Positions 4,488-30,068 of a stretch of 64,000 nucleotides of DNA are shown here, in pieces. The position numbers and the translations under genes are program-made. Below the pieces are notes generated by a model. It had not been told where the DNA came from. It saw only the letters and a program-made list of their open reading frames with translations, and ran no database searches. The stretch lies in assembly GCA_963837465.1 (NCBI GenBank), contig CAWINB010000004.1, positions 650,853 to 714,852 on the forward strand. The letters run 5' to 3'. The stretch comes from Candidatus Doudnabacteria bacterium (GTDB taxonomy: Bacteria > Patescibacteriota > Doudnabacteria > UBA920). Position 1 is the first letter of the stretch. Each line of letters starts with the position of its first letter.

Positions 4488-6359
4488 ATGTCCATATTCA
4501 GTAAAATCAACGAAGAAGAATTAAAGAAAAAGAAGGAGCAGGTCAGCGAGGCCGAGACCGAGCGGAACTTGAGTTCTTCTTTGGGGGATCTGGAAAAAAC
4601 CTATCGCGAAGGCTTGACTACCCTAAAGGATATTATCGCGCCTTCGGCCCTGAAGTTTGAAAGTTCCCACTTTGAAATTAACGGCAAGTTCGGCCGCAGT
4701 TTTTTCGTGCTGGCTTATCCGCGCTTTTTGTCCAGCAATTGGCTGTCGTTTATTATCCAGGCCGAGGGAGCTTTGGATTTGTCCATGTTTATTTATCCCA
4801 TTGATTCCGCCGACATCCTGAAAAAACTCAAGAGCAAAGTCGGTGAAATCGGCTCGCAAATGTCCATTAACCAGGAAAAAGGCATGGTGCGCGACCCGAT
4901 GCTGGAAACCGCTTACAAAGATGTGGAAAGTTTGCGCGACAACCTCATGCAGGGAACGGAAAAATATTTCCGTTTCGCGCTTTACTTTACCATTTACGCC
5001 AACGACTTAAAGGAGCTGGACAAGTTTTCCTCCACTTTGGAAAGTTCTTTGGGAGCCAAACTTATAGTAACCAAGCGCGCGCTTTTGCAAACGCAAAACG
5101 GCCTTAACTCCAGTCTGCCTTTGGGGCTGGATGAACTGGACGTGGCCAACAATATGAACACCGGCCCGCTGTCTTCCTGCTTTCCTTTCGTGTCTTCCGA
5201 TTTAACCAGCAATGACGGAATTTTATACGGCATCAACCGCCACAATAACAGCCTGATTTTGTTCGATCGCTTTGCCATGGAAAACGCCAATTCCGTGGTG
5301 TTTGCCAAGTCCGGGGCCGGTAAATCTTACGCCGTCAAACTGGAAGTTTTGCGCTCGCTTATGGTGGGTACGGACGTTATTATAGTGGACCCGGAAAACG
5401 AGTACCAGCATTTGGCTTCGGCCGTGGGCGGGACTTATTTGAGCGTGTCGCTGAATTCGGAATTCGCGCATCAACCCTTTTGATTTGCCCACGGGCCTTG
5501 AGGGCGAGGACAGCGCCGATATTTTACGCAGTTCCGTCATCAATCTTTTGGGCTTGCTTAGTCTGATGCTGGGAAAACTTGACCCTACGGAAGAAGCGCT
5601 TATGGACAAGGCCATTTGGCAAACCTATGCCAAAAAAGACATTACGCCGCAACTGGAAGATTTTAAAGGCATAGAGCCTCCGACCATGAACGATTTGATA
5701 GAAATTTTAAACGGCATGGTCGGCGCCGAAAGCCTGGCCCAGCGCTTGTTTAAGTTTACCCAGGGTACTTTTGGCGGCTTGTTAAACCAGCCGACCAACG
5801 TGGTGCTGAACAATCAACTTGTAGTATTTAGCATTCGCGATCTGGAAGAGGAACTGCGGCCGATTGCCATGTACATTATTTTAAATTATATTTGGAATAT
5901 TGTGCGTTCGGAATTAAAGCGCCGAATCCTGGCCGTGGACGAGGCCTGGATTTTAATGCAGCACGAAGATTCGGCCAGGTTTTTGTTCGGCATTGCCAAG
6001 CGCGCGCGCAAATATTACCTGGGCCTGACCACCATTACCCAGGACGTGGCCGATTTTCTGGCCAGCCCGTACGGCAAGCCTATTGTCACCAACTCATCCA
6101 TCCAAATGCTGCTTAAGCAGAGTCCGGCGGCCATTAACGTTATCGCGGAAACGTTTTTTTTAACCGAGGGCGAAAAATACCTGCTGCTGGAAAGCGAAGT
6201 CGGCGAAGGCATCTTTTTTGCCGGCCTCAAGCACGCCGCGATTAAAATTTACGCCTCCTACGTGGAAGACCAGATTATCACCACGGATCCCAAACAGTTG
6301 CTGGAGATTCAGGAGAGCCAGGAGAAGTTGAATTAAATTCATGGATATGACAGATGCCA

Positions 6360-6393
6360 CTGTTTTCACAGACGCGCGCGTCTGTGAAAACAG
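6360..6393. repeat. 34-nt perfect palindrome CTGTTTTCACAGACGCGC|GCGCGTCTGTGAAAACAG
   Basis: Direct reading. Lies between virB4 and the giant downstream gene. Confidence 0.9.
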
Positions 6394-6399
6394 GGTTGT

Positions 6400-9300
6400 T
6401 TGTCTGTCCGTGAATTATTTTTTATGGCGGAAGAAGATTCACAATCAAATATAGGCGTAGCCGATGGGCAAGAAGATGCTGTTAGGTCTGACAAACAACC
6501 AGCCGCGTCTAAAAAATTTATCCCATTGTCGGGTAAACCGCAAATTGTCAGATTGGGGGAAAGCTTTTTGGGCGGCCGGGTGTTAATTGTTAATGTTACA
6601 GTTGGCGGCGAGCCTCTTAATAATGGCATCAAGGTTTATAAAGATTCCGAGATTATTTTTACCGGGCGGGGTTTGGATAATTTAGATTTTTGGGAAGTCA
6701 GCCGGGAGGGGCGCGACTCTCTGCCTTTTACCCGTTTTAGAACAAAAAGTCCGTCCTTGGCTGTATTCAGCCCGCAAGACGCGCTTGGCGCTCTGGAAAA
6801 CGGCGAGAGTTTCGGTATTTCTTTTTTTTCCAGCAAGTACGGCGGGACGATGCGCACATTATCGGCGCTTTTTACTTACGAAACCGAGGAAGCGGACGAA
6901 GAAGCCGCCCGGAAGGCTAAAGCCGCGCGGGCGGCGGCGGAGGCGGCGCAGTCGGAGGGCGGAGGCGGAACTTTGGGTATTTCCCAGTTGATTGATGAAA
7001 GCATTGGCGGGGTGGCTAACGCGGTTGGGAGGGGGTTGCGGAGTTCGGCGAGGTCGGCGGTTTCCGGGACCGCAGGGGCTTACGCTGCCGGTTCTCAAAC
7101 TGTCAGCCAAAAATCAACCACGGAAAGTGCCGGAGGTGGAGGGTATGATGAGGAGACAGCCCAAGTCTCAACCGTAAACGTTCCTTCATCTACCATTGAA
7201 GCTTCTTCGGCGGGCACGCGGGTTGTAAGCCAGTCAGGAACTGTGGGCGGGTCACGCGGCGCGGAGATTACTTCTTCGGGTACGGTTTCAGGGTCGGGTG
7301 GCGGTACAATTTCTTCTTCGGGTACGGTTGAACCGCGAACTCGGGTAGGTGCAACTGCCCAGGTTAGTTCAGCGTCCGGCGGCGGACAAACTTTTGGCGG
7401 CGGGACTGTATCTGCCGGTGGTACGGCATCGGCTCAGGCATTTGTGGAAGCCAGGGTTTCGGGATCAGCTTCGGGACAAGCTTCCGGCGGCGGGCAAGTA
7501 TCGGCTTCTGTTTCAGGCGGGGGCGGAGTTTCATCCGGCGGCGGCGGAAATATTTCCGGACAGGCTTCGGTTCAAAGCGGCGGATCCCAAGCCGCATCGG
7601 CGCGGCCGGTTTCGCAAGGTCTCCAGGGAGGGGGAATATCGTCCGGGCGTCAACAGACAGCGCAGGCTCAGTCAGCCGGACAAAACGCCGGCCAGCAGGC
7701 ACAGACAGTGTCTCAAAATCAGGGCGGGCGGGCAGGATCAACAATTTCCGGCACAGCGCAAACAGCCGTTCCTTCTTTTTCATCAGGGACAAACTTAAAG
7801 ACACAAATAGGTGGCGCGGGCGCAACTTCTCCGGCTGTGCCTAAAAGCCGACCTTTGGCATCGGGAGCACCAGCCACGCCTTTGGGTAGTTTACCGCAAA
7901 ATTTTTCGGGTGCCTCGGGAACTTTTCAGCCCGGTTTAAATTTAGGCGCCAGCACACCCGTGGATGGCATCGCGGTAAACCCTCCCGCGGGCATGGAAGG
8001 CACTTTGAATAAGTTTTTTGAAAACCAGTCGGCTTTGGGCAGGTTAGATTTGGGGCCTGCCGAGAATCAAAATCATGAAATTCAGGGTCAGGAAAGTTCT
8101 TTGCCGGACGGGGAGAATGTAACAGAATCATCTGGATCTCCTGCCTCCGATGGCCAGCCGGAAATTTCAGGCTCCCCGGAAACCGAGCCGGATGTCGCGC
8201 CGCCTTTGTCCGAAGCGGGACTTCCGGGCGAAGGCGCGGGTGGCGAAGGTCAGGGTGGTCAGGAAGGCGCGGTCGATTCGGGGGATTCGGGGTCAGGAGC
8301 TCAATCAGGAAATTCGGAGCCGGGAGCGAAAGGGGGATTGAATGGTCAAACAGAAGGCGGCCAGGGAGGCCCGCCGGATAAAAATGCTCCGACCGGAACA
8401 AAGCCGCCGGGGCAAAATCCCGAAGCGACCGGGGCGCCTGACGCTGCCGTTCCGGGACAGCAGCCCGCCGCGGAGGGAGCCGCTCCGGATTCGGCCGAAG
8501 CAGACGCTTTAGCAGGACCTGAAGCAGACGGGGAAGCGGGAGCTGGCGCGGGGCCCGAGGGAGCCGCCGCGGCAGGGGCCGCGCTTTCCGGCGGCGGGCT
8601 TGATGCCGCCGCCGCGTTGGTCAACACGGAAGTAAATAGTCTTCTCACTGCCGCGGCTTTATGGGTCTGGGGATCGGGGATAGTCAGCTGCGGTTTTACC
8701 ATTGTGCTGGGGGCGCTAGTTGGGGATTTTCTCGTGCTGATGAAGAAGCGGTTGGCCAAAAGGGCTGTCAGCGCGCTTTCGGTAACCAGTTTAGGCGCTG
8801 GGATGAAACTGGCTTCATTTTCAAATGACCAACTGGCGGAAAAAATTAAGTTTAATCTGCCGGTTAAGGCCAATATCGCGGCGATGAACGCGGTAGTGGC
8901 AGTTATGATTTTTGGGGCAATATTTTTTTTCGGTGTGGTGTTATACGCCGGCTGTACCTGGCCGTTGGGCCAGTTCATCAGTTCGGCAACCAATTTTAAA
9001 GCCTCCATTATCGGCGGAATGGGTTATTCCAATGTTTGCCAGGATTTTTTATCGTTCCCCGCCGGACTCAGCGGCGCGGCGCAGGGAGCGACTACTGCCG
9101 GACCGGGTGCGCCATCTCCGAGTACTTCGTCTTCCAGGACTTGCAATGTTTTACCTTCCGGCAATGCCAGCGTGGCGCAATTATCTACTACCTGCTTTGG
9201 CGCTAACGCCTACACCGCCGCTGTTGTTGCGGCGCACGAAAGCGGCGGTACTCCGGGTATTGCCAGCGGTACGGATTATTGCCGTAATCCGGATGGTAGT

Positions 9301-9591
9301 CCGGTAATGATAAACGGTAAAATAGCCTCTGTCTCTTTTGGTTTGTTTCAAATTAATATTACCGCGCATCCTCTTGGAAATTTAAATTGCCCCACTGCTT
9401 TTAGCAACCTTTACACCGGCAGTAATAAGCAATGCCAGATTACAAACCCGAACCTTTACAACCAATGTGTTGCCGCGGCTGAAGACCCCCAGCAAAATAT
9501 CCAGGCCGCCTGCCAAATTTCCAACAATGGTACCAAATGGAGCGCTTGGCAGGCCGATATTAATGCCTGCAATATAAATCCAGGTTCATAA
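6400..9591 (+). CDS. giant secretion-system-associated membrane protein: Gly/Ser/Ala-rich low-complexity N-terminal half, TM helices, C-terminal lytic-transglycosylase-like (SLT/VirB1-like) domain
   Basis: 1063 aa. TM segments lie near residues 735-760 and 800-830. The C-terminus reads AHESGGTPGIASG...SVSFGLFQIN, cf. the SLT E-S...G-L-M-Q motif. The true start may be the ATG at 6424. Confidence 0.55.
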   Translation: MSVRELFFMAEEDSQSNIGVADGQEDAVRSDKQPAASKKFIPLSGKPQIVRLGESFLGGRVLIVNVTVGGEPLNNGIKVYKDSEIIFTGRGLDNLDFWEVSREGRDSLPFTRFRTKSPSLAVFSPQDALGALENGESFGISFFSSKYGGTMRTLSALFTYETEEADEEAARKAKAARAAAEAAQSEGGGGTLGISQLIDESIGGVANAVGRGLRSSARSAVSGTAGAYAAGSQTVSQKSTTESAGGGGYDEETAQVSTVNVPSSTIEASSAGTRVVSQSGTVGGSRGAEITSSGTVSGSGGGTISSSGTVEPRTRVGATAQVSSASGGGQTFGGGTVSAGGTASAQAFVEARVSGSASGQASGGGQVSASVSGGGGVSSGGGGNISGQASVQSGGSQAASARPVSQGLQGGGISSGRQQTAQAQSAGQNAGQQAQTVSQNQGGRAGSTISGTAQTAVPSFSSGTNLKTQIGGAGATSPAVPKSRPLASGAPATPLGSLPQNFSGASGTFQPGLNLGASTPVDGIAVNPPAGMEGTLNKFFENQSALGRLDLGPAENQNHEIQGQESSLPDGENVTESSGSPASDGQPEISGSPETEPDVAPPLSEAGLPGEGAGGEGQGGQEGAVDSGDSGSGAQSGNSEPGAKGGLNGQTEGGQGGPPDKNAPTGTKPPGQNPEATGAPDAAVPGQQPAAEGAAPDSAEADALAGPEADGEAGAGAGPEGAAAAGAALSGGGLDAAAALVNTEVNSLLTAAALWVWGSGIVSCGFTIVLGALVGDFLVLMKKRLAKRAVSALSVTSLGAGMKLASFSNDQLAEKIKFNLPVKANIAAMNAVVAVMIFGAIFFFGVVLYAGCTWPLGQFISSATNFKASIIGGMGYSNVCQDFLSFPAGLSGAAQGATTAGPGAPSPSTSSSRTCNVLPSGNASVAQLSTTCFGANAYTAAVVAAHESGGTPGIASGTDYCRNPDGSPVMINGKIASVSFGLFQINITAHPLGNLNCPTAFSNLYTGSNKQCQITNPNLYNQCVAAAEDPQQNIQAACQISNNGTKWSAWQADINACNINPGS

Positions 9592-9602
9592 TTTCAGCTT
9601 TT

Positions 9603-10079
9603 ATGAAAAAATCCTACAAATTTTTAATCGCGATAATAATTATCGGCTTGTTTGCTTACAGCCTGTACTTCGCGCTGACTTCCAAAAAACAGGTTGCCGC
9701 GCCGGTTGTGACCAGCCAAATAAGCGGGCCGACTTTAACCGTGCCTACGCAAAACGGGAGCAGTACCCAGGTTAGTGATATTACCAAAAATCCCCAGGCA
9801 GTTTTGGGCGACACCGATGTCATTGACCAGAACAGCGGCTACAGCATTGTTTATTTTAGCAAAGACCAAAGCTTTTTGATTACCATTCTTTCGGAGCCGG
9901 CGCAGGAAAACCGGGACGCGGCGGAACAGGAATTGCTCACCAAGCTGCAAGTCAGCCAATCCACGGCCTGCGATTTAAAAGTAGCGCTGACCGTGCCCGC
10001 GGATGTAGACGAAGCGTTATCCGGACAGGACTGGGGCTTAAGTTTTTGTCCCATAGGACAGACATTTCCGATTGAATAA
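9603..10079 (+). CDS. hypothetical secreted/membrane-anchored protein
   Basis: 158 aa with an N-terminal TM/signal sequence (KFLIAIIIIGLFAYSLYFAL). Confidence 0.4.
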   Translation: MKKSYKFLIAIIIIGLFAYSLYFALTSKKQVAAPVVTSQISGPTLTVPTQNGSSTQVSDITKNPQAVLGDTDVIDQNSGYSIVYFSKDQSFLITILSEPAQENRDAAEQELLTKLQVSQSTACDLKVALTVPADVDEALSGQDWGLSFCPIGQTFPIE

Positions 10080-15475: not shown

Positions 15476-15552
15476 TGGTGCACCCGGCAGGGATCGAACC
15501 TGCGGCCTTTCCCTTCGGAGGGGAACGCTCTAATCCACTGAGCTACGGATGC
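15476..15552 (-). tRNA. tRNA-Arg (anticodon CCG)
   Basis: Cloverleaf folded by hand: acceptor GCATCCG/CGGGTGC, anticodon loop CTCCGAA, T-loop GGTTCGATCC and a 3' CCA. Confidence 0.85.
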
Positions 15553-16356: not shown

Positions 16357-16448
16357 GGAGAGGTCGCATAGTGGTTTAGTGCACCGGTCTTGAAAACCGG
16401 CAGTAGCTTTATAAGCTCTCGAGGGTTCGAATCCCTCCCTCTCCGCCA
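16357..16448 (+). tRNA. tRNA-Ser (anticodon TGA)
   Basis: GGAGAGG acceptor, anticodon loop CTTGAAA, long variable arm, GGTTCGAATCC and CCA. Confidence 0.85.
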
Positions 16449-18776: not shown

Positions 18777-18868
18777 GGAGAGGTCGCATAGAGGCCTAGT
18801 GCGCTGGTTTGCTAAACCGGTAAAGGAGTCAAATCCTTTCGGGGGTTCGAATCCCCCCCTCTCCGCCA
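18777..18868 (+). tRNA. tRNA-Ser (anticodon GCT)
   Basis: GGAGAGG acceptor, anticodon loop TTGCTAA, long variable arm, GGTTCGAATCC and CCA. Confidence 0.85.
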
Positions 18869-22656: not shown

Positions 22657-22789
22657 ATAGATGGTACGAAAATATGGATGATAAACGGACAACGCTGATA
22701 TATGTTATATTTATTATACCACGCAAGTTGATTATATGGCGCATTAGCACTCTTGTCAATAGACTGATAATAAAAAATTTTAAAAGTTT

Positions 22790-23320
22790 GTGTTTAAGGC
22801 AAAAAATAAAACCAAGCAGCCGGAAAACGAGCAAAAGGCCTACGAGTATGCCGTGTTTTTGCTGTCTTTGCAGTTAAGGACTGTTGGTGAGGTTAGAAGT
22901 AAGATGGAAGGTCGCGGTTATTCTCCAGCGGTTATCGAAAACGTAACCGAGCAATTACGTAAACAGCGTTATTTGGATGACGAACGCTATGCCGAAGTTT
23001 TTTTGGAAAATTTAAAGCAATACAAAAATTTGGGCTATTATGGCATAAAGAAAAAATTTATGCTTAAAAAGTTGCCCGCTAACATAATCGAAAGAACTTT
23101 GGCCGATGGTTTATCCGTTGAAGAGGAATTAAAAATCGCCAAAAGGCTTTTAAAAAAAGAAGGGGTTGCGGCGGCTTCGTCCGATTCGGATAATAATCAG
23201 GTCGCGGATAATTCTTACGCCATTTTTAGTGAAGATCAGAGCAAACAAAAACAAAAAATCACCCAAAAATTAAGGGTGAGAGGATTTAGAGGAGAGGTTA
23301 TCGCCAGGCTTGTCTATTAA
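22790..23320 (+). CDS. recX: recombination regulator RecX
   Basis: RecX repeats (EQKAYEYAVFLLSLQLRTVGEVRSKMEGRGYSPAVIE...RYLDDERYAEVFLEN). Confidence 0.7.
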   Translation: MFKAKNKTKQPENEQKAYEYAVFLLSLQLRTVGEVRSKMEGRGYSPAVIENVTEQLRKQRYLDDERYAEVFLENLKQYKNLGYYGIKKKFMLKKLPANIIERTLADGLSVEEELKIAKRLLKKEGVAAASSDSDNNQVADNSYAIFSEDQSKQKQKITQKLRVRGFRGEVIARLVY

Positions 23321-23344
23321 GATTGAGGTTGGGGTAAATAAAAT

Positions 23345-23378
23345 CCGGGCCCGCTTACTGGTAGCGAGGCCCGGTTTT
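23345..23378. terminator. bidirectional rho-independent terminator CCGGGCCCGCTTACTGGTAGCGAGGCCCGGTTTT
   Basis: GC stem with T-run on the plus strand and A-run upstream. Confidence 0.7.
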
Positions 23379-23547
23379 GCGGGCAGTGCAAATACCACTA
23401 CCTGCGGGACGCAATCTCATGCGCGAGTGAGATAAGATTCAGCAAGCATCCAGCGAATTCCGGATTGCTTATTCTTAGAGTCTCAAACACTTCAGGTCCT
23501 CTGGTCAGAAGAGCCTGGATTAGACTTTCGTCGCAGAGACTTAGCCG

Positions 23548-24757
23548 ATACCGTTCGGAAATCCGTTGGTGAAATCAGATGTTCCTGTTAAGCTTAAGCG
23601 ATAAAACCAAGGTTTAACCAGTTAACTAAGAAAGGAATCTAGTCATGCCAAAAAAAACGTCGCCATGTTTGTCCACATTGCAGCAGTTTAAAAACAATTA
23701 AATTTGGTAAGGATGGCAAGAGTCATCGCTACCTCTGCCATTTTTGTAAGCGCACCTTTTCCATTTACCACGGCCAGGATTCTCACAACCTTTGGATAGA
23801 GCATATTGACGGCGTGGGCTTTAGACGCTTAGGCGATGAAAACACCCTGTCAGGGCCCCAGACCTACGCGCGCGTCATCACAGAGCTGGATCAGCTGCCA
23901 AAAAACGACTTTTTGACCAAAACCCTCTGTGATTTGGCCCACTGCCAGGGGATTTTAATCCTTGACGGCAAATACATCGCGGTTAAAGGCTTTGAGCGGA
24001 AGATTCCATTCCTGTTCGGCATTGATTACCTGACTCACGATATTTTACACGGAGAATTGTTCTTTTCTGAGGACGAAGCGGCTTTCTCCCAGTACTTTCA
24101 GAAACTAAAAGACCTGGGCTACAACCTTAAAATAGTTGTCGCCGATGACAGAGCAGGCATAAAACAGGCTCTAAACAAGGTCTTTCCCTACGCGCGGCTG
24201 CAGCTCTGCCATGTCCACTTCCTGGAAAACATCCGCGCTGTGCTTAGGGTTAAAACCGAGGAGCGCTACAGACACTTTTTTAATTCACTTAAGCTCCATG
24301 TGTTTACCGAAGGAGCGGATGAGGAAAAAATTGACGCCGGACTGGAGCATGTCTTAAGAAATCATGCCCAACACAGCCCCAAACTCCAGGATATTATCTG
24401 GGAAGTTAAGCGTAGACGCGAAGCCTTGTTTAATTACCTGAAAGTCAAAGACTGTCCCAACAACACCAACCTCATAGAACTTTTTAATTCCCACTTAAAC
24501 GGCCGCCTTAAAACCATCAAGGGTTTCCAGAGTTTTAAGTCGGCAAATCGCTGGCTTAACGCCTGGATGATTCGGCGCCGCAGCAAGACTTTTACCGATT
24601 GCGACAAAAAATTTAAATATTTAAACAAACACTGCTCCCTGGAATTTACCATTAAAAAACAGGCCCTGTGGCCTGAAACTTTAAAAACTTTAGGAATTAA
24701 CAAAATAAATTTTTTCGAAAAAAGCGATTACTAACAACGGATTCCCGAACGGTAACC
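23548..24757. mobile_element. IS1-family-like insertion sequence (about 1.2 kb) with imperfect terminal inverted repeats TACCGTTCGG(A/G)AATCCGTTG
   Basis: IRL 23548-23568 vs IRR 24735-24757 (19/20 match). Encodes one transposase with an InsA-like zinc ribbon and an InsB-like DDE domain. Confidence 0.65.
23645..24734 (+). CDS. IS1-family transposase (InsA-like Zn-ribbon fused to InsB-like DDE domain); frame broken in an A-run at 23650-23657
   Basis: Zinc ribbon CPHCSSLKTIKFGKDGKSHRYLCHFCKRTFS, cf. IS1 InsA ...[20 protein letters not shown]. DDE region ILDGKYIAVKG / IVVADDRAGIK / IELFNSHLNGRLKTIKGFQSF, cf. InsB MDEQWGYVGAK / WMTDGW / [22 protein letters not shown]. The ATG at 23645 is +1 out of frame with the body. 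The A-run is the only place they can be joined. Confidence 0.6.
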
Positions 24758-24943
24758 TCCAAGCGATCAAACGCCTCGAGCCAGGACTCGGAAACATGAC
24801 TTTGATTCATCATATTCTGTTACCTCCTTCCTCCAGTCAAATTCAATGCACTTTATATTAATAAACTATAACAAAAAAAGCAACCATAAATACTATGATG
24901 GTTGCTTTGTCCGCGTCCTTAGTATAGGAGTTTAGCCGACGAC

Positions 24944-25885
24944 TTATAAATTCATCTCCCGTAACCTCTTAACCCTGTCCTCAATCGGCGGGTGGGTGTT
25001 AAACAGGCTGGCGAACCAGCTGCGCGCGCCGTGGGCGCTGCCTTGTTGGCTGGAAGTGGCTTCCATCCTGTCCTGGTGGAATGGATTGACTATGTAAAAA
25101 TGCGCCGTGGCATTGTTGGCTTCGGCGAGCGGAGCGGAGTCATCTGAAATTTTTTCCAAAGCTGACGCAAGACCTTCGGGGTATCTTGTTAAAAGCGCGC
25201 CGCTGGCATCTGCCAAATATTCCCTTTGGCGGGAAACAGCCAGTTTTATTAAAGTGGCAATGAGCGGTGAAAGGATGGCCAAAAGAATACCAACCGCGAA
25301 AAGTATCATGCCTAAATTGCCATTATTGTTGTTATTGCTCCTGCGGCCGCCGAAAATGGAAAAGCGCAAAAACCAGTTGGACATAAGCGCTATCATGCCC
25401 ACCAAAACCACAACCAGGGTCATTAAACGGATATCGTAATTGCCAATGTGCGAAAGTTCGTGCGCGGTAACGCCTTCCAGTTCGGTTTTGTTCAATTTTT
25501 GCAGAATCCCGCTGGTGTAGCAAATGACCGCGTGCTTTGGGTCGCGGCCCGTGGCAAAGGCGTTGGGAGCGGAGTCTTGAATAATATAGATTTTTGGCGT
25601 AGGAATGCCCGCGGCAATGCACAAATTTTCCACTATGTTATAGAGCTGCTGGTTTGTCGCCCGGTCAACGGCCTGGGCTTTGGAAACCGCTAGCGTGATG
25701 GAGTCGGCAAAATAATAAGAGAATAATGCCGAGAAAACGCTAATAAACACAGCCAAATACAAAATCGCGTCGTCCTGATAAATTTGCGCGAACACCCAGC
25801 CAATAGCCGAAATTACCACTAAAAAGCTGAATATTAATATCCAGCTGTCGCGTTTATTTTTGGCGATAAAATCGTAGGTAAGCAT
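24944..25885 (-). CDS. htpX: zinc metalloprotease HtpX (M48)
   Basis: HELSH zinc motif (TAHELSHIGNYD) and a multi-TM topology. Confidence 0.8.
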   Translation of the reverse strand: MLTYDFIAKNKRDSWILIFSFLVVISAIGWVFAQIYQDDAILYLAVFISVFSALFSYYFADSITLAVSKAQAVDRATNQQLYNIVENLCIAAGIPTPKIYIIQDSAPNAFATGRDPKHAVICYTSGILQKLNKTELEGVTAHELSHIGNYDIRLMTLVVVLVGMIALMSNWFLRFSIFGGRRSNNNNNGNLGMILFAVGILLAILSPLIATLIKLAVSRQREYLADASGALLTRYPEGLASALEKISDDSAPLAEANNATAHFYIVNPFHQDRMEATSSQQGSAHGARSWFASLFNTHPPIEDRVKRLREMNL

Positions 25886-27575: not shown

Positions 27576-28193
27576 ATGAGTGATTTTTACCATTGTAGAA
27601 GGGCCCCGTACTTGGAAGAGATTGTTGAGGTTGAAGAAGCGGAACCAAAAAGGATGGTACGTAGATTGCAGATTGGCGTAATGGGAAGCGCTGCTGACCT
27701 CGGATATTCCGAAGCAGTAGCAAAATTGGCCGAAGATATCGGCCGCGAAGTGGCTTTGGCCGGATGCACTTTAGTCTTTGGCGCGGAGAAAGATTGTGAT
27801 TCGCTTTCTACCGCGGCCGGACGAGGCGCTCGAAGTGTCGGCGGCCTGACTGTCGGCGTGACTTATGGCAAGGGGCTGCAAGTTCACGACGATGCTGACG
27901 TTATTATCGCCACCGGCATGGAGCGCGGCGGCGGACGTGAGTTTGTGCTGGCGATTTCCTGCGATGCCATTATCGCCATTTCCGGAGGCAGCGGCACCTG
28001 CAACGAAATCGTTGTGGCTTACCAGGCCAGCATTCCGGTTATCGGAATTGTCGGCTGCGGCGGCTGGAGCGAAGAAATGGCTGGCCGGGCGTTTGATGCT
28101 CGGCGGCAGCACCTAGCGGTTAAGCCAGCTCGCACGGCCAAGGAAGCTGTAATGTTGGCGGTAGAAGCTGCACGTACAGGAGGGGAGCACTGA
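27576..28193 (+). CDS. TIGR00725/LOG-like (SLOG superfamily) Rossmann-fold protein
   Basis: GVMGSAADLGY...GCTLVFGAEKD...ISGGSGTCNEIVVAYQASIPVIGIVGCGGW matches the LOG/TIGR00725 pattern. SD AAAAGGATGG is present. The ORF track extends to 27534. Confidence 0.55.
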   Translation: MSDFYHCRRAPYLEEIVEVEEAEPKRMVRRLQIGVMGSAADLGYSEAVAKLAEDIGREVALAGCTLVFGAEKDCDSLSTAAGRGARSVGGLTVGVTYGKGLQVHDDADVIIATGMERGGGREFVLAISCDAIIAISGGSGTCNEIVVAYQASIPVIGIVGCGGWSEEMAGRAFDARRQHLAVKPARTAKEAVMLAVEAARTGGEH

Positions 28194-28194
28194 C

Positions 28195-28923
28195 ATGAAG
28201 AAGCTCAAGCTGGCCGTTTGCAACGGAACCATGGAACAGCAGATGGTGAATTATTTGGAACAAGCCGGTCTGAGGTTTCAAAAAGAGCCGCGGCGGTTTC
28301 GTTACGTCATCGGGCATGACTTGGTTTCCGAAGTTGTGTTCATGCGCCCGCAGGACATGCCGCGCGAAGTGGCGCATGGCAATTACGACATGGGGATTTG
28401 TGGCTTTGATTTTTTTCTGGAATATGGATCCAGCATTGATCACAATTCCGATAAACAAACTCCGGGCTGTGGAATGCATGGTTCATTCGATACCTCCAAA
28501 GCTGGTGCCCACAGCACGAAGGTGGTGCTCATTGCCCACAAAGACGATCCGGCCTCTTCCAAAGCGGATGTGCCGAAGGGAGCTAAGATCCTTTCTGAGT
28601 ACCCGTGGCTAACCCGGGAAGTGCTATCGCCAAATAAAGTCGAAGGTAGTGACCTGTGGACTTACGACTTAAATCGCAATGCGCATCCTGGAGTGGTTTA
28701 TTCCTGCGGTGCGACCGAAGCCCATATTCCGTGGAATTATCGTTTTGGGGTTTGCCTGGTCGCTTCAGGCCTGACGCTGGCTGCCAACAATCTCAAAATC
28801 GTCGACGTGCTTTGTGAAACCTGCCCGGTTATGTTACATGCGGGGCAGGATAAACAAAAAGAGCAGCGGCAGCTGCGGCATTTGTTCGCCGAAGCTGGGT
28901 TGCTGCGATTGGGGTTGTTATGA
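28195..28923 (+). CDS. HisG-like ATP phosphoribosyltransferase (short form, 242 aa)
   Basis: RPQDMPREVAHGNYDMGICGFDFFLE and SCGATEAHIPWN...SGLTLAANNLKIV resemble HisG catalytic signatures. There is an AGGAGG SD and a 1-nt gap from the upstream gene. Confidence 0.55.
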   Translation: MKKLKLAVCNGTMEQQMVNYLEQAGLRFQKEPRRFRYVIGHDLVSEVVFMRPQDMPREVAHGNYDMGICGFDFFLEYGSSIDHNSDKQTPGCGMHGSFDTSKAGAHSTKVVLIAHKDDPASSKADVPKGAKILSEYPWLTREVLSPNKVEGSDLWTYDLNRNAHPGVVYSCGATEAHIPWNYRFGVCLVASGLTLAANNLKIVDVLCETCPVMLHAGQDKQKEQRQLRHLFAEAGLLRLGLL

Positions 28924-30068
28924 AATACATCGTCGCGTACCCGCCAGTAGATTTTTCTATCCCTTTTTCGGAACTAAAGCCGGAAGATATTGACATCTAC
29001 TTTCACTACACAAACCGCATTGGCGCCGCTACCTGCAAGGCCGCGTGCGCCCATTGTTACTTTCGCAACAAGCCCGAGTTCCATATTCCGGTGGATAAGG
29101 CCCTAGCAATTACCCGTTCGCTTCGGACCCAAGGCTACAACATCGGGATGGCGCCGGCGGACAGCTTTGGCGATGAGGCGTTGTTGGCCGGGGACGCCGG
29201 TTCGGCTTTCCGCCTTAAGCCCATTGGTACGTCGGCTTGGAGCAGTGGAGTGCCGTTGTTTATCGCTGGCTGGCAAGAGCGGCTAAACCGCGCTTGGGAG
29301 ATTGGCTTTCGGTCAATCATAATCACCGCTCACGAAGCGGCCGGAACCCCTGTCCCAATAAAAGGTGTGACCAGGGCCCCGGTAATTTTAGGAGCCGTAA
29401 GCAACATCAAAACCTGGAATAGGATGAACCCAAACAAGCAATTCGCCATTTCCACCACTTTTACCATCCGCGCCGACAACTGCAAGTTGGAGTTGATGCG
29501 TCAAATGGTGCAGTGGGGCGTAGGAGAAGGGATTGATCTTGTTCGGTTCAACTGCTTTGCGAATTTTCAGGGTTTGTCTGAACATCGTCAGTATGAGATG
29601 TCGCGACGGGATATTACCAAGTTTTTCGGCTACCTTGCCTTGTTGCAGGAAGAGTTTTTGGAAACTCCGACTGCGCTGGGTATTTCGGAAGACTGGGGCG
29701 ACGCGGGAATAGAACAAATTTACCCGTACTTGCCGCCGGTCTGGCAAACTCGTACGGCCGGTTGGTGCCGCGCCGGGTATCGGCTATTTGCGATGATTGA
29801 AGTCCGGGGCCAAATTGTATTAACCGGATGCGTGGACAAATGGGAGCCTGAGCTTGGCCTGCTGCATCAAGTCGGCGAAGACAACTACCGCATTCAATGG
29901 CGGTATGATCAAATCGAAACGCTGCGGCAGGCGGTGCTTCAAAACCGAGTCTACGCCTGCTGGGGAGGCGTGGGTTGCGGTCGCGGTAAATCTGCCGGTT
30001 TTGCCACCGGCCAAAAAACAGAACAGCAAATCTTTGGCGGAAATAGTCCGCTTGAGATTTTAGCCTAA
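28920..30068 (+). CDS. radical SAM enzyme of unknown function
   Basis: CKAACAHCY equals CX3CX2C at residues 39-46. Extra C-terminal Cys cluster CWGGVGCG. ATGA start/stop overlap with the upstream gene. Confidence 0.6.
   Translation: MKYIVAYPPVDFSIPFSELKPEDIDIYFHYTNRIGAATCKAACAHCYFRNKPEFHIPVDKALAITRSLRTQGYNIGMAPADSFGDEALLAGDAGSAFRLKPIGTSAWSSGVPLFIAGWQERLNRAWEIGFRSIIITAHEAAGTPVPIKGVTRAPVILGAVSNIKTWNRMNPNKQFAISTTFTIRADNCKLELMRQMVQWGVGEGIDLVRFNCFANFQGLSEHRQYEMSRRDITKFFGYLALLQEEFLETPTALGISEDWGDAGIEQIYPYLPPVWQTRTAGWCRAGYRLFAMIEVRGQIVLTGCVDKWEPELGLLHQVGEDNYRIQWRYDQIETLRQAVLQNRVYACWGGVGCGRGKSAGFATGQKTEQQIFGGNSPLEILA

Follow-up and report, generated by a model that had tools for sequence, protein, structure and literature searches.

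A 64,000-nucleotide stretch of contig CAWINB010000004.1 from a Candidatus Doudnabacteria bacterium (hereafter, the window) carries an intact 1210-bp insertion sequence (IS) of the IS256/Mutator superfamily, and its transposase gene appears to contain a built-in frame break. A run of eight adenines (A8) follows the start codon almost immediately, and the start codon is out of frame with the open reading frame (ORF) that encodes the zinc ribbon and the DDE catalytic domain. We give a probability of about 0.62 to the reading in which the transposase is produced by programmed transcriptional slippage on this run. Judging from the sequences of the window copy and its relatives, programmed recoding of some kind at the A run is highly probable; given such recoding, a transcriptional mechanism would probably be responsible, and a ribosomal one would be rather unlikely. 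The element has the following features.

23547..24756, + strand: complete insertion sequence of the IS256/Mutator superfamily, zinc-ribbon variant, 1210 bp, delimited by comparison with 44 related loci
23547..23568, + strand: left terminal inverted repeat, GATACCGTTCGGAAATCCGTTG
23600..23607, + strand: GATAAAAC/ATAAAAT block, candidate −10 element of the transposase promoter, kept in position and sequence in relatives
23614..23625, + strand: leader palindrome TTAAC-CA-GTTAA, found at the same place in many relatives as TTAAC-N2-3-GTTAA
23630..23636, + strand: Shine–Dalgarno (SD)-like GAAAGGA, 8 nt 5' of the ATG
23645..23701, + strand: start codon and unshifted frame, MPKKTSPCLSTLQQFKNN and stop, an 18-amino-acid dead-end peptide
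23650..23657, + strand: putative slippage run and recoding site, exactly 8 A
23658..24734, + strand: transposase ORF body, read one base downstream of the frame that the ATG sets, with the stop codon TAA at 24732–24734
23670..23747, + strand: zinc ribbon CPHC-x18-CHFC, residues 9–34 of the recoded protein (NF050000, NF048018)
23964..24479, + strand: DDE catalytic core, with D107 (23964–23966), D167/D168 (24144–24149), and E278 (24477–24479)
24735..24756, − strand: right terminal inverted repeat, reading inward, GTTACCGTTCGGGAATCCGTTG

In the window copy, the frame of the ATG at 23645 is translated as MPKKTSPCLSTLQQFKNN and then closed by a stop codon. The body frame is open from 23643 to its stop and encodes ..QKKRRHVCPHC..CHFC.. 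followed by the DDE domain, and its first ATG, GTG, or TTG codon is the GTG at 23814. The ATG would be in frame with the body if the run consisted of 7 A, giving a 362-amino-acid product, or of 10 A, giving a product of 363 amino acids. The recoded N-terminus would be MPKKRRHVCPHC with A7 and MPKKKRRHVCPHC with A10, and the complete A7 protein, which requires one A fewer, would read MPKKRRHVCPHC...EKSDY. The shift site corresponds to codons 3–5 of the sole ORF and is upstream of both the zinc ribbon and the DDE domain. Initiation at a non-AUG codon of the body frame was considered and rejected, as only TCA TGC CAA lies between the TAG at 23640–23642 and the run, and in 18 relatives only AAA codons are available. 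A preliminary description of this DNA, based on the sequence alone, had proposed a complete IS of about 1.2 kb with a zinc ribbon and a DDE domain, an ATG at 23645 that is out of frame, and an A8 run at 23650–23657 within which a shift is needed for expression, and these proposals are supported here. It had also stated that the frames could be joined only within the run. The relatives show that the shift does fall there, although the window alone would not have settled the point, because its two frames overlap across 23645–23701.

Comparison with related loci indicates that the frame break is shared across the family and is not a lesion of the window copy. A protein database search identified 1012 homologues, of which the best 120 were examined for their recorded starts, and loci were fetched from genomes (n = 24; Doudnabacteria, Saccharibacteria, Daviesbacteria, Yanofskybacteria, and other Patescibacteria metagenome-assembled genomes [MAGs]) and from metagenomes (n = 80). 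Ninety distinct loci spanned the N-terminus, and their products shared 41–82% amino acid identity with the window protein. In 89 of these 90 relatives, an ATG is followed by a brief spacer (mostly 2–3 nt) and a run of A6–A9 and is out of frame with the zinc-ribbon–DDE ORF. The run was A8 in 60 loci, A7 in 25, A9 in three, and A6 in two. The frame is restored by the loss of one A (or the gain of two) in 75 of the 90 loci, comprising 72 loci and three others (L019, L079, and L089) in which the ATG is 11 nt upstream, and by the gain of one A in 14; the only locus in frame is L053 (protein P0040), in which the ATG is followed by A9. When this minimal edit, the removal or addition of one A, was applied, a uniform N-terminus of the form M-x-K-K-x4-C-x2-C was obtained. 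In 18 loci, a body-frame stop codon (TAA) overlaps the first A's of the run, which means that the shift must fall inside the run. The unshifted peptides of the relatives are 5–77 amino acids long, mostly <20, and are conserved neither in length nor in sequence. Outside this set, more distant homologues have N-termini resembling the edited one but encoded in frame. One of them, P0125 (MTKKRRHFKCPKC, encoded by ATG ACA AAA AAG AGG), shares the GATACCGTT end and the leader palindrome; ATG ACA AAA AAG (A6G) is also the reading at L108 (395–430). Other in-frame relatives are L109 (55–90; GTG-A6) and L110 (15–50; ATG CAA AAA AAT, A7). One further locus, L111 (295–345; ATG TC-A10), has a second frameshift within the zinc ribbon and looks decayed.

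Patterns of substitution show that the downstream frame is functional and under purifying selection. The zinc ligands CxxC...Cx2-4[C/H] were present in all 90 relatives, and the mean column entropies of the first 13 zinc-ribbon codons were 0.77, 0.69, and 1.54 bits at codon positions 1, 2, and 3, respectively, so that the third position was twice as variable as the other two. Measured from the first Cys, the ORF was at least 332 codons long in 86 of the 90 loci and 178–295 codons long in the remaining four. The run itself is conserved as nucleotides, beyond what lysine coding requires, as shown by its codon usage: all 167 body-frame Lys codons within the runs are AAA, whereas Lys elsewhere in the same genes is encoded by AAA 2017 times and by AAG 897 times (69% AAA). 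Differences in run length between relatives are also accompanied by substitutions that keep the offset between the two frames (e.g., A7-C-A-C in L063 versus A9-C in L081).

Copies that carry A8 and are out of frame have moved recently, as the comparison of nearly identical copies shows. One locus (L001), from a separate Logan assembly (ERR10755938), matches the window element at 100% from GATACCG onward to the end of its contig but has a different left flank. It also has 8 A, and because it was assembled independently and in another context, a local assembly error is not the source of the A8 run. Several of the identical or nearly identical pairs of loci have different flanks (L040/L042, L092/L093, and others), and run length was equal in 8 of 8 pairs; that is, no DNA-level variation in run length was seen in the eight informative pairs. 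Contigs of the source samples break inside the IS, as would be predicted for a multi-copy repeat. Another contig from ERR10755938 (L107) ends at about window position 23453, approximately 95 nt short of the IS end and not within the IS, which hints at a variant or a coverage break in the spacer between recX and the IS. The clade with the four-Cys zinc-ribbon transposase is found mainly in Patescibacteria. One member (L012; CAYPWV010000003.1) comes from a MAG with the label 'uncultured Gammaproteobacteria', in which its contig is 87 kb long; this could reflect mis-binning or horizontal spread beyond the Patescibacteria.

In terms of its transposase, the element is best described as a divergent member of the IS256/Mutator superfamily whose N-terminus is a zinc ribbon; it does not belong to the IS1 family, to which the preliminary description had assigned it. 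Residues 99–306 of the recoded protein matched Pfam Transposase_mut (PF00872) with 63.7 bits (gathering cut-off 21; E = 1.8e-17), and the Pfam MULE match was slightly below its cut-off; the IS1 DDE domain (DDE_Tnp_IS1) gave no match in Pfam at E values up to 1. The best NCBIfam models were NF033543 (IS256; E = 3.4e-21), NF048019 ('IS256 family transposase, variant Zn-binding type'), and NF033544 (IS1249). Weighing against a straightforward assignment to that family, their scores of 75.6, 53.4, and 35.3 bits miss the respective equivalog cut-offs of 150, 150, and 300, indicating that the clade is a divergent, uncurated branch. The NCBIfam IS1 transposase model (NF033558) scored 19.7 bits against a cut-off of 100, and the match was confined to residues 9–49, that is, to the zinc ribbon. 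The zinc ribbon scored above the cut-offs of NF050000 (IS1/IS1595 N-terminal zinc-binding; 35 bits, cut-off 28) and NF048018 (transposase-like zinc-binding; 33.4 bits, cut-off 27) and below that of PF03811 (InsA-type zinc ribbon; 14.1 bits, cut-off 26.1). The earlier idea of an InsA-like zinc ribbon joined to an InsB-like DDE domain is therefore retained for the kind of zinc ribbon (NF050000) and abandoned for the DDE domain. In an alignment of 26 homologues, D107, D167, D168, and E278 were invariant. The only solved relative found by sequence was the copy-out/paste-in transposase of ISCth4, a member of the IS256 family (PDB 6xg8; E = 1e-3). By analogy with IS256 and with ISCth4, the similarity to the latter being weak, transposition may likewise proceed by a copy-out/paste-in route with a circular intermediate.

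The element boundaries were defined by the same comparison. The termini of the window copy are GATACCGTT...AACGGTAAC, and all 44 loci compared begin with G(A)TACCGTT... and end with ...AACGGTA(A)C. The cores of the terminal inverted repeats, TACCGTTCGGAAATCCGTTG (23549–23568, + strand) and TACCGTTCGGGAATCCGTTG (24735–24754, − strand), are near-perfect complements of 20 nt each and are the only two matches in the whole 64 kb, where 0.02 would be expected by chance. The inverted repeats had already been located correctly in the preliminary description, except that the true ends are 2 bp further out on each side. Target-site duplications, where present in relatives, are 9 bp long and directly abut the conserved terminal bases, as in L044 (CTGCTGTTT), L061 (CCATTCGCC), and L013 (TCAGCAACC). 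Within the leader, the block at 23600..23607 may be the −10 element of the transposase promoter, judging from its conservation; a consensus promoter scan did not detect it. The leader palindrome may be an operator or another leader element. Its general form, TTAAC-N2-3-GTTAA, occurs 15–30 nt 5' of the transposase ATG in L002, L007, L013, L017, L027, L031, L043, L090–L104, and others, and another subgroup has a conserved TTTTTCATCTTTAAACATTAA block in the leader in its place. No Rfam family was detected across 22700–25100 at E values up to 1, and no switch in GC skew, as a sign of inversion, was seen at the IS.

The arrangement suggests how expression of the transposase would be controlled. Translation would start at the ATG at 23645 and pass through two codons into the A8 run, and unshifted ribosomes would release the 18-amino-acid peptide. 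The full transposase would arise only when the run behaves as A7 (or as one two longer), which would hold for a minority of messages or translation events. The most probable mechanism is programmed transcriptional realignment, in which RNA polymerase would slip on the A8/T8 tract. Transposase output would in this way be capped at a few per cent of transcription, and no regulator protein would be made, the upstream 'ORF' before the shift amounting to Met-Pro-Lys-Lys only. InsA and OrfA are DNA-binding regulators, whereas the unshifted product here is a non-conserved peptide, and the device could therefore only limit the yield of transposase. Transcriptional slippage is favored because both shift directions are required within one family (75 versus 14 loci): according to Antonov et al. 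(2013), homologues that need both directions point to RNA-polymerase slippage, whereas ribosomal frameshifting keeps one direction (PMC3711429). It is also favored by the strictly homopolymeric nature of the run and by the failure to detect any stimulatory signal. The run contains at least 7 A in 88 of the 90 loci, which fits the seven-A minimum established for IS1447 (PMC6211511). No codon is conserved after the run (ATG, ACA, ACG, AAG, and others occur in relatives), and when the 45 nt upstream and the 60 nt downstream were folded for all loci, no conserved RNA structure was found (mean z = +0.12 and −0.12, respectively). An SD core is present 3–12 nt 5' of the start codon in only 35 of 87 relatives and is absent in 52. 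The usual stimulators of ribosomal +1 or −1 shifts are thus missing, given that there is no conserved codon, no structure, and no consistent SD. The symmetry GCCA-A8-TGGC, seen in one subgroup, was considered as a signal and rejected, as it follows from the M-P and W-H codons.

Several observations weigh against this interpretation. We infer both the occurrence of the shift during transcription and its efficiency from sequence patterns only. At A8, the run is one nucleotide short of the 9-nt threshold that applies in many bacteria (PMC1088944), and the main class of loci depends on a deletion or on a +2 insertion, a requirement that is less common among the cases known so far. Runs of similar length also occur in some in-frame relatives (A7 in L110, A9 in L053, and A10 in the decayed L111), so that run length alone separates in-frame from out-of-frame members imperfectly. 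The exclusive use of AAA for the in-run Lys codons has a naive probability of about 2e-27, a value that overstates the independence of the 90 loci, which are related. Finally, tRNA-Lys can re-pair perfectly in any frame on an A run, which is compatible with ribosomal slippage. In that mechanism, which we regard as unlikely here, a P-site tRNA-Lys would slip on AAA-AAA-A at codons 3–5, one base downstream (upstream in the minority class). Heptamers of the A_AAA_AAA type are known shifty sites (PMC3711429), and where an initiation SD is present, the site is 13–17 nt from it and could affect early elongation. The two directions required within the family speak against this mechanism, as do the lack of a conserved slow or stop codon after the run, of conserved downstream structure, and of an SD core in most relatives; moreover, a +1 slip in the P site would need no more than four nucleotides (AAA-A), fewer than the seven or more A's that are conserved.

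Transcriptional slippage must also be weighed against explanations at the DNA level. Under phase variation, A8 copies would be OFF and rare A7 or A10 copies, generated by replication slippage, would be ON and would supply transposase also in trans. Homopolymers are hot spots for replication slippage (PMC3711429), and in-frame variants do exist in L053 (A9) and L111 (A10, the +2 version of the A8 type). However, only one of the 90 loci in the clade is in frame, the eight identical or nearly identical pairs never differ in run length, changes in run length accompany offset-keeping substitutions (L063 versus L081), and an ON copy would be expected to spread ON copies, of which none was seen; we therefore consider phase variation quite improbable. 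Still less credible is a dead copy or a sequencing artefact, in which an insertion changing A7 to A8 inactivated the window transposase. Such an insertion would be of the commonest kind of indel, and gene callers do report only a 306-amino-acid fragment (P0001). Nevertheless, the same A8 occurs in an independent assembly at another locus (L001), and the out-of-frame layout is found in 89 of 90 relatives, which come from many unrelated projects and have intact ORFs under selection. A similarly low probability attaches to the interpretation given in the preliminary description, namely, an IS1-family element that recently split an SD-led gene of about 80 amino acids. The relevant features of the flanks are the following.

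24757..24813, − strand: start of an ORF, 19 codons (MMNQSHVSESWLEAFDRLE), abutting the IS, with the SD GGAGGAAGGAGG at 24823–24834; putative gene
23398..23546, − strand: open frame running from the IS toward the terminator, which joins the ORF starting at 24813 only if 1206 bp (not 1210) are removed
23341..23378, no strand assigned: G+C-rich hairpin after recX (inverted repeat I17), probable bidirectional terminator, outside the IS

The observations behind that interpretation are sound in part. The zinc ribbon does belong to the IS1/IS1595 type (NF050000, 35 bits), and the minus-strand ATG at 24813, with the strong SD-like GGAGGAAGGAGG upstream, does read into the IS. Removal of 1206 bp does give a 69-amino-acid open frame ending at 23398, and we estimate the probability of an open frame of about 50 codons arising by chance at roughly 0.06 (for a stop frequency of about 5.5%). 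Nevertheless, the DDE domain is of the IS256/Mutator type, and the frames join solely with the 1206-bp boundaries. The true element is 1210 bp, and neither 1210 bp nor 1210 + 9 bp is a multiple of 3, so that the frames do not join upon the removal of either; when the product of the 1210-bp excision is read directly, the ORF stops after 20 codons (…RLE-G-stop). When 5.8 billion clustered proteins were searched with the 69-amino-acid protein, no homologue came up other than its own truncated form of 38 amino acids. The flanks thus do not join into a conserved protein, an outcome that the preliminary description itself had set against its reading. Neither an empty site nor an uninterrupted copy of the small gene was recovered from the search with the 69-amino-acid protein or from exact look-ups of RecX, HtpX, and P0002. 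The RecX look-up returned two short contigs, one (L106) with the same recX–IS junction and a break within the IS and the other stopping before the IS, and the exact look-ups of HtpX and P0002 found neither on record.

The window copy also lacks a target-site duplication, at the tips or within 40 nt of them (left GACTTAGCC versus right CTCCAAGCG; the flanking 9-mers are at 23538–23546 and 24757–24765). A perfect 9-bp duplication was found in 15 of 44 relatives and was absent from the window copy and 28 other relatives (~60%); the loci without one include L004, L026, L029, L035, L040, L042, L046, L055, L081, and L104. In several relatives, end-to-end similarity runs 2–15 nt past the GATACC tip. 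Most of the loci without a duplication come from short-read contigs that span a 1.2-kb repeat, and the lack is likely attributable in part to chimeric joins; recombination among copies and, in certain subgroups, longer ends are other possible causes. The same caveat applies to the window, in which the assembly may have joined the flanks of different IS copies, since the source contigs break inside the IS; if it is chimeric, its two flanks need not adjoin. On the minus strand, the htpX terminator (24877–24908; an 11-bp hairpin without mismatches and then a T run) is followed by an A/T-rich stretch, the 12-nt SD-like sequence, and ATGATG (first ATG at 24811–24813). This SD and the ATG at 24813 may mark a real gene start, that of a small putative ORF of which 19 codons are left before the IS end. 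Elsewhere in the window, the G+C content is 0.54–0.55 at 6001–10000 and 28001–30000, compared with about 0.46 in the remainder, with no rRNA found in these regions, and Rfam identified three tRNAs only, at 15479–15552 (− strand), 16357–16445 (+ strand), and 18777–18865 (+ strand).

Among known systems, the element most resembles the IS256 family (Mutator superfamily, p-MULT 1; IS256 and ISCth4; ISfinder subgroup IS1249; NF048019), with which it shares the Transposase_mut DDE domain, a length of about 1.2 kb, a single ORF, inverted repeats of about 22 bp starting with G, 9-bp duplications (in some of its relatives), and a four-Cys N-terminus like that of the Zn-variant models. It differs in scoring below the NCBIfam equivalog cut-offs and falls in a separate, uncurated clade. 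In IS1, which is 768 bp long, a −1 ribosomal frameshift occurs at A6C between insA and insB, and InsA is a repressor. The present element is like IS1 (InsA/InsAB') in having a zinc ribbon of broadly the same type at the N-terminus and in using an A run for the change of frame, but its DDE domain is different and the frame change is at codons 3–5 instead of between two genes. Transcriptional realignment has been shown or inferred for relatives of IS630, IS5, IS3, and IS1 (PMC1088944, PMC3711429, PMC4066793). The IS630, IS5 (DDE_Tnp_1), and IS1 clusters described by Baranov et al. (2005; PMC1088944) and Antonov et al. (2013; PMC3711429) resemble the present family in their A-rich homopolymers, in the occurrence of +1 and −1 clusters within one family, and in their systematic mis-annotation as two genes or as fragments; they differ in that the shift falls in mid-gene and unites a DNA-binding ORF with a catalytic one, whereas here both domains are downstream of the shift.

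The closest experimental parallel to the proposed mechanism is the IS1447 group, for which '+1' transcriptional slippage has been described (PMC6211511). Among cDNA clones from the A9 run of IS1447 (IS3 family), approximately 16% had gained an A and approximately 16% had lost one; transposase results from the deletion alone, and a run of seven A's is both required and enough (PMC6211511). The two groups share a conserved run of 7–9 A and the requirement that the transcript lose one A to encode the full-length transposase. However, IS1447 belongs to the IS3 superfamily (DDE/RNase H, with a helix–turn–helix OrfA), its site is at the orfA/orfB overlap, a functional OrfA is made without a shift, and a stem–loop adjoins the run, whereas in the present family the site is at codons 3–5, the unshifted peptide is short and non-conserved, and no conserved structure is present. 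The ISMich2 group of prokaryotic Mutator-like elements (p-MULT 4; PMC3942029) likewise has a Mutator-superfamily transposase with a conserved frame break that was read as programmed, but both of its ORFs are substantial, the shift predicted for it is translational and −1, and it belongs to another clade of the superfamily. It was the sole reported frameshift that we found for the prokaryotic Mutator superfamily (PMC3942029). In the literature searched, with subscription journals and ISfinder outside its scope, we found no report of a frame break or slippage in the IS256 family and no description of IS frameshifting in Patescibacteria, nor did we find a slippage site so close to the start (codons 3–5 of a single ORF, with no upstream product). 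Transposase genes with programmed slippage at an A run form an established class, of which an IS256-family, start-proximal case is, as far as we found, unreported.

The frame break has also affected how this abundant family appears in databases. Among the best 120 homologues, most were recorded as proteins of 305–317 amino acids starting after the zinc ribbon, and the 'longer' records start at a TTG, GTG, or ATG inside it (LCPGCGS.., MCPNC.., VHCGS..); the only record starting with MKKKWHHTCPRC was P0040, from the in-frame locus. This pattern suggests that gene callers fail everywhere for the same reason. One family member (P0006, JGI) is named 'ribosome modulation factor', and P0001 and P0002 (NCBI/ENA) are also poorly annotated. 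Recognition of the recoding site restores the true protein of 350–362 amino acids and avoids the counting of such elements as pseudogenes.

The start-proximal A run might even be the sole regulatory device of the element and sense the physiology of the host, a possibility that we regard as speculative and improbable. If so, slippage at a tract approximately 50–60 nt past the estimated promoter would depend on ATP/NTP pools, the speed of RNA polymerase, or Gre-type factors, and the amount of transposase would rise in particular growth states of these tiny-genome, host-dependent Patescibacteria, with the short ORF merely loading ribosomes. Such a design would be free of any regulator protein, unlike the OrfA/OrfAB logic of IS1, IS3, and IS630. 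More generally, with a site directly after the start codon, the design is minimal and leaves no upstream regulator protein, and the family would provide a clean natural system in which RNA-polymerase slippage on A7–A8 tracts could be measured for deletions as well as insertions. It could also be used to ask how candidate-phyla bacteria, whose genomes are very small, restrain multi-copy insertion sequences.

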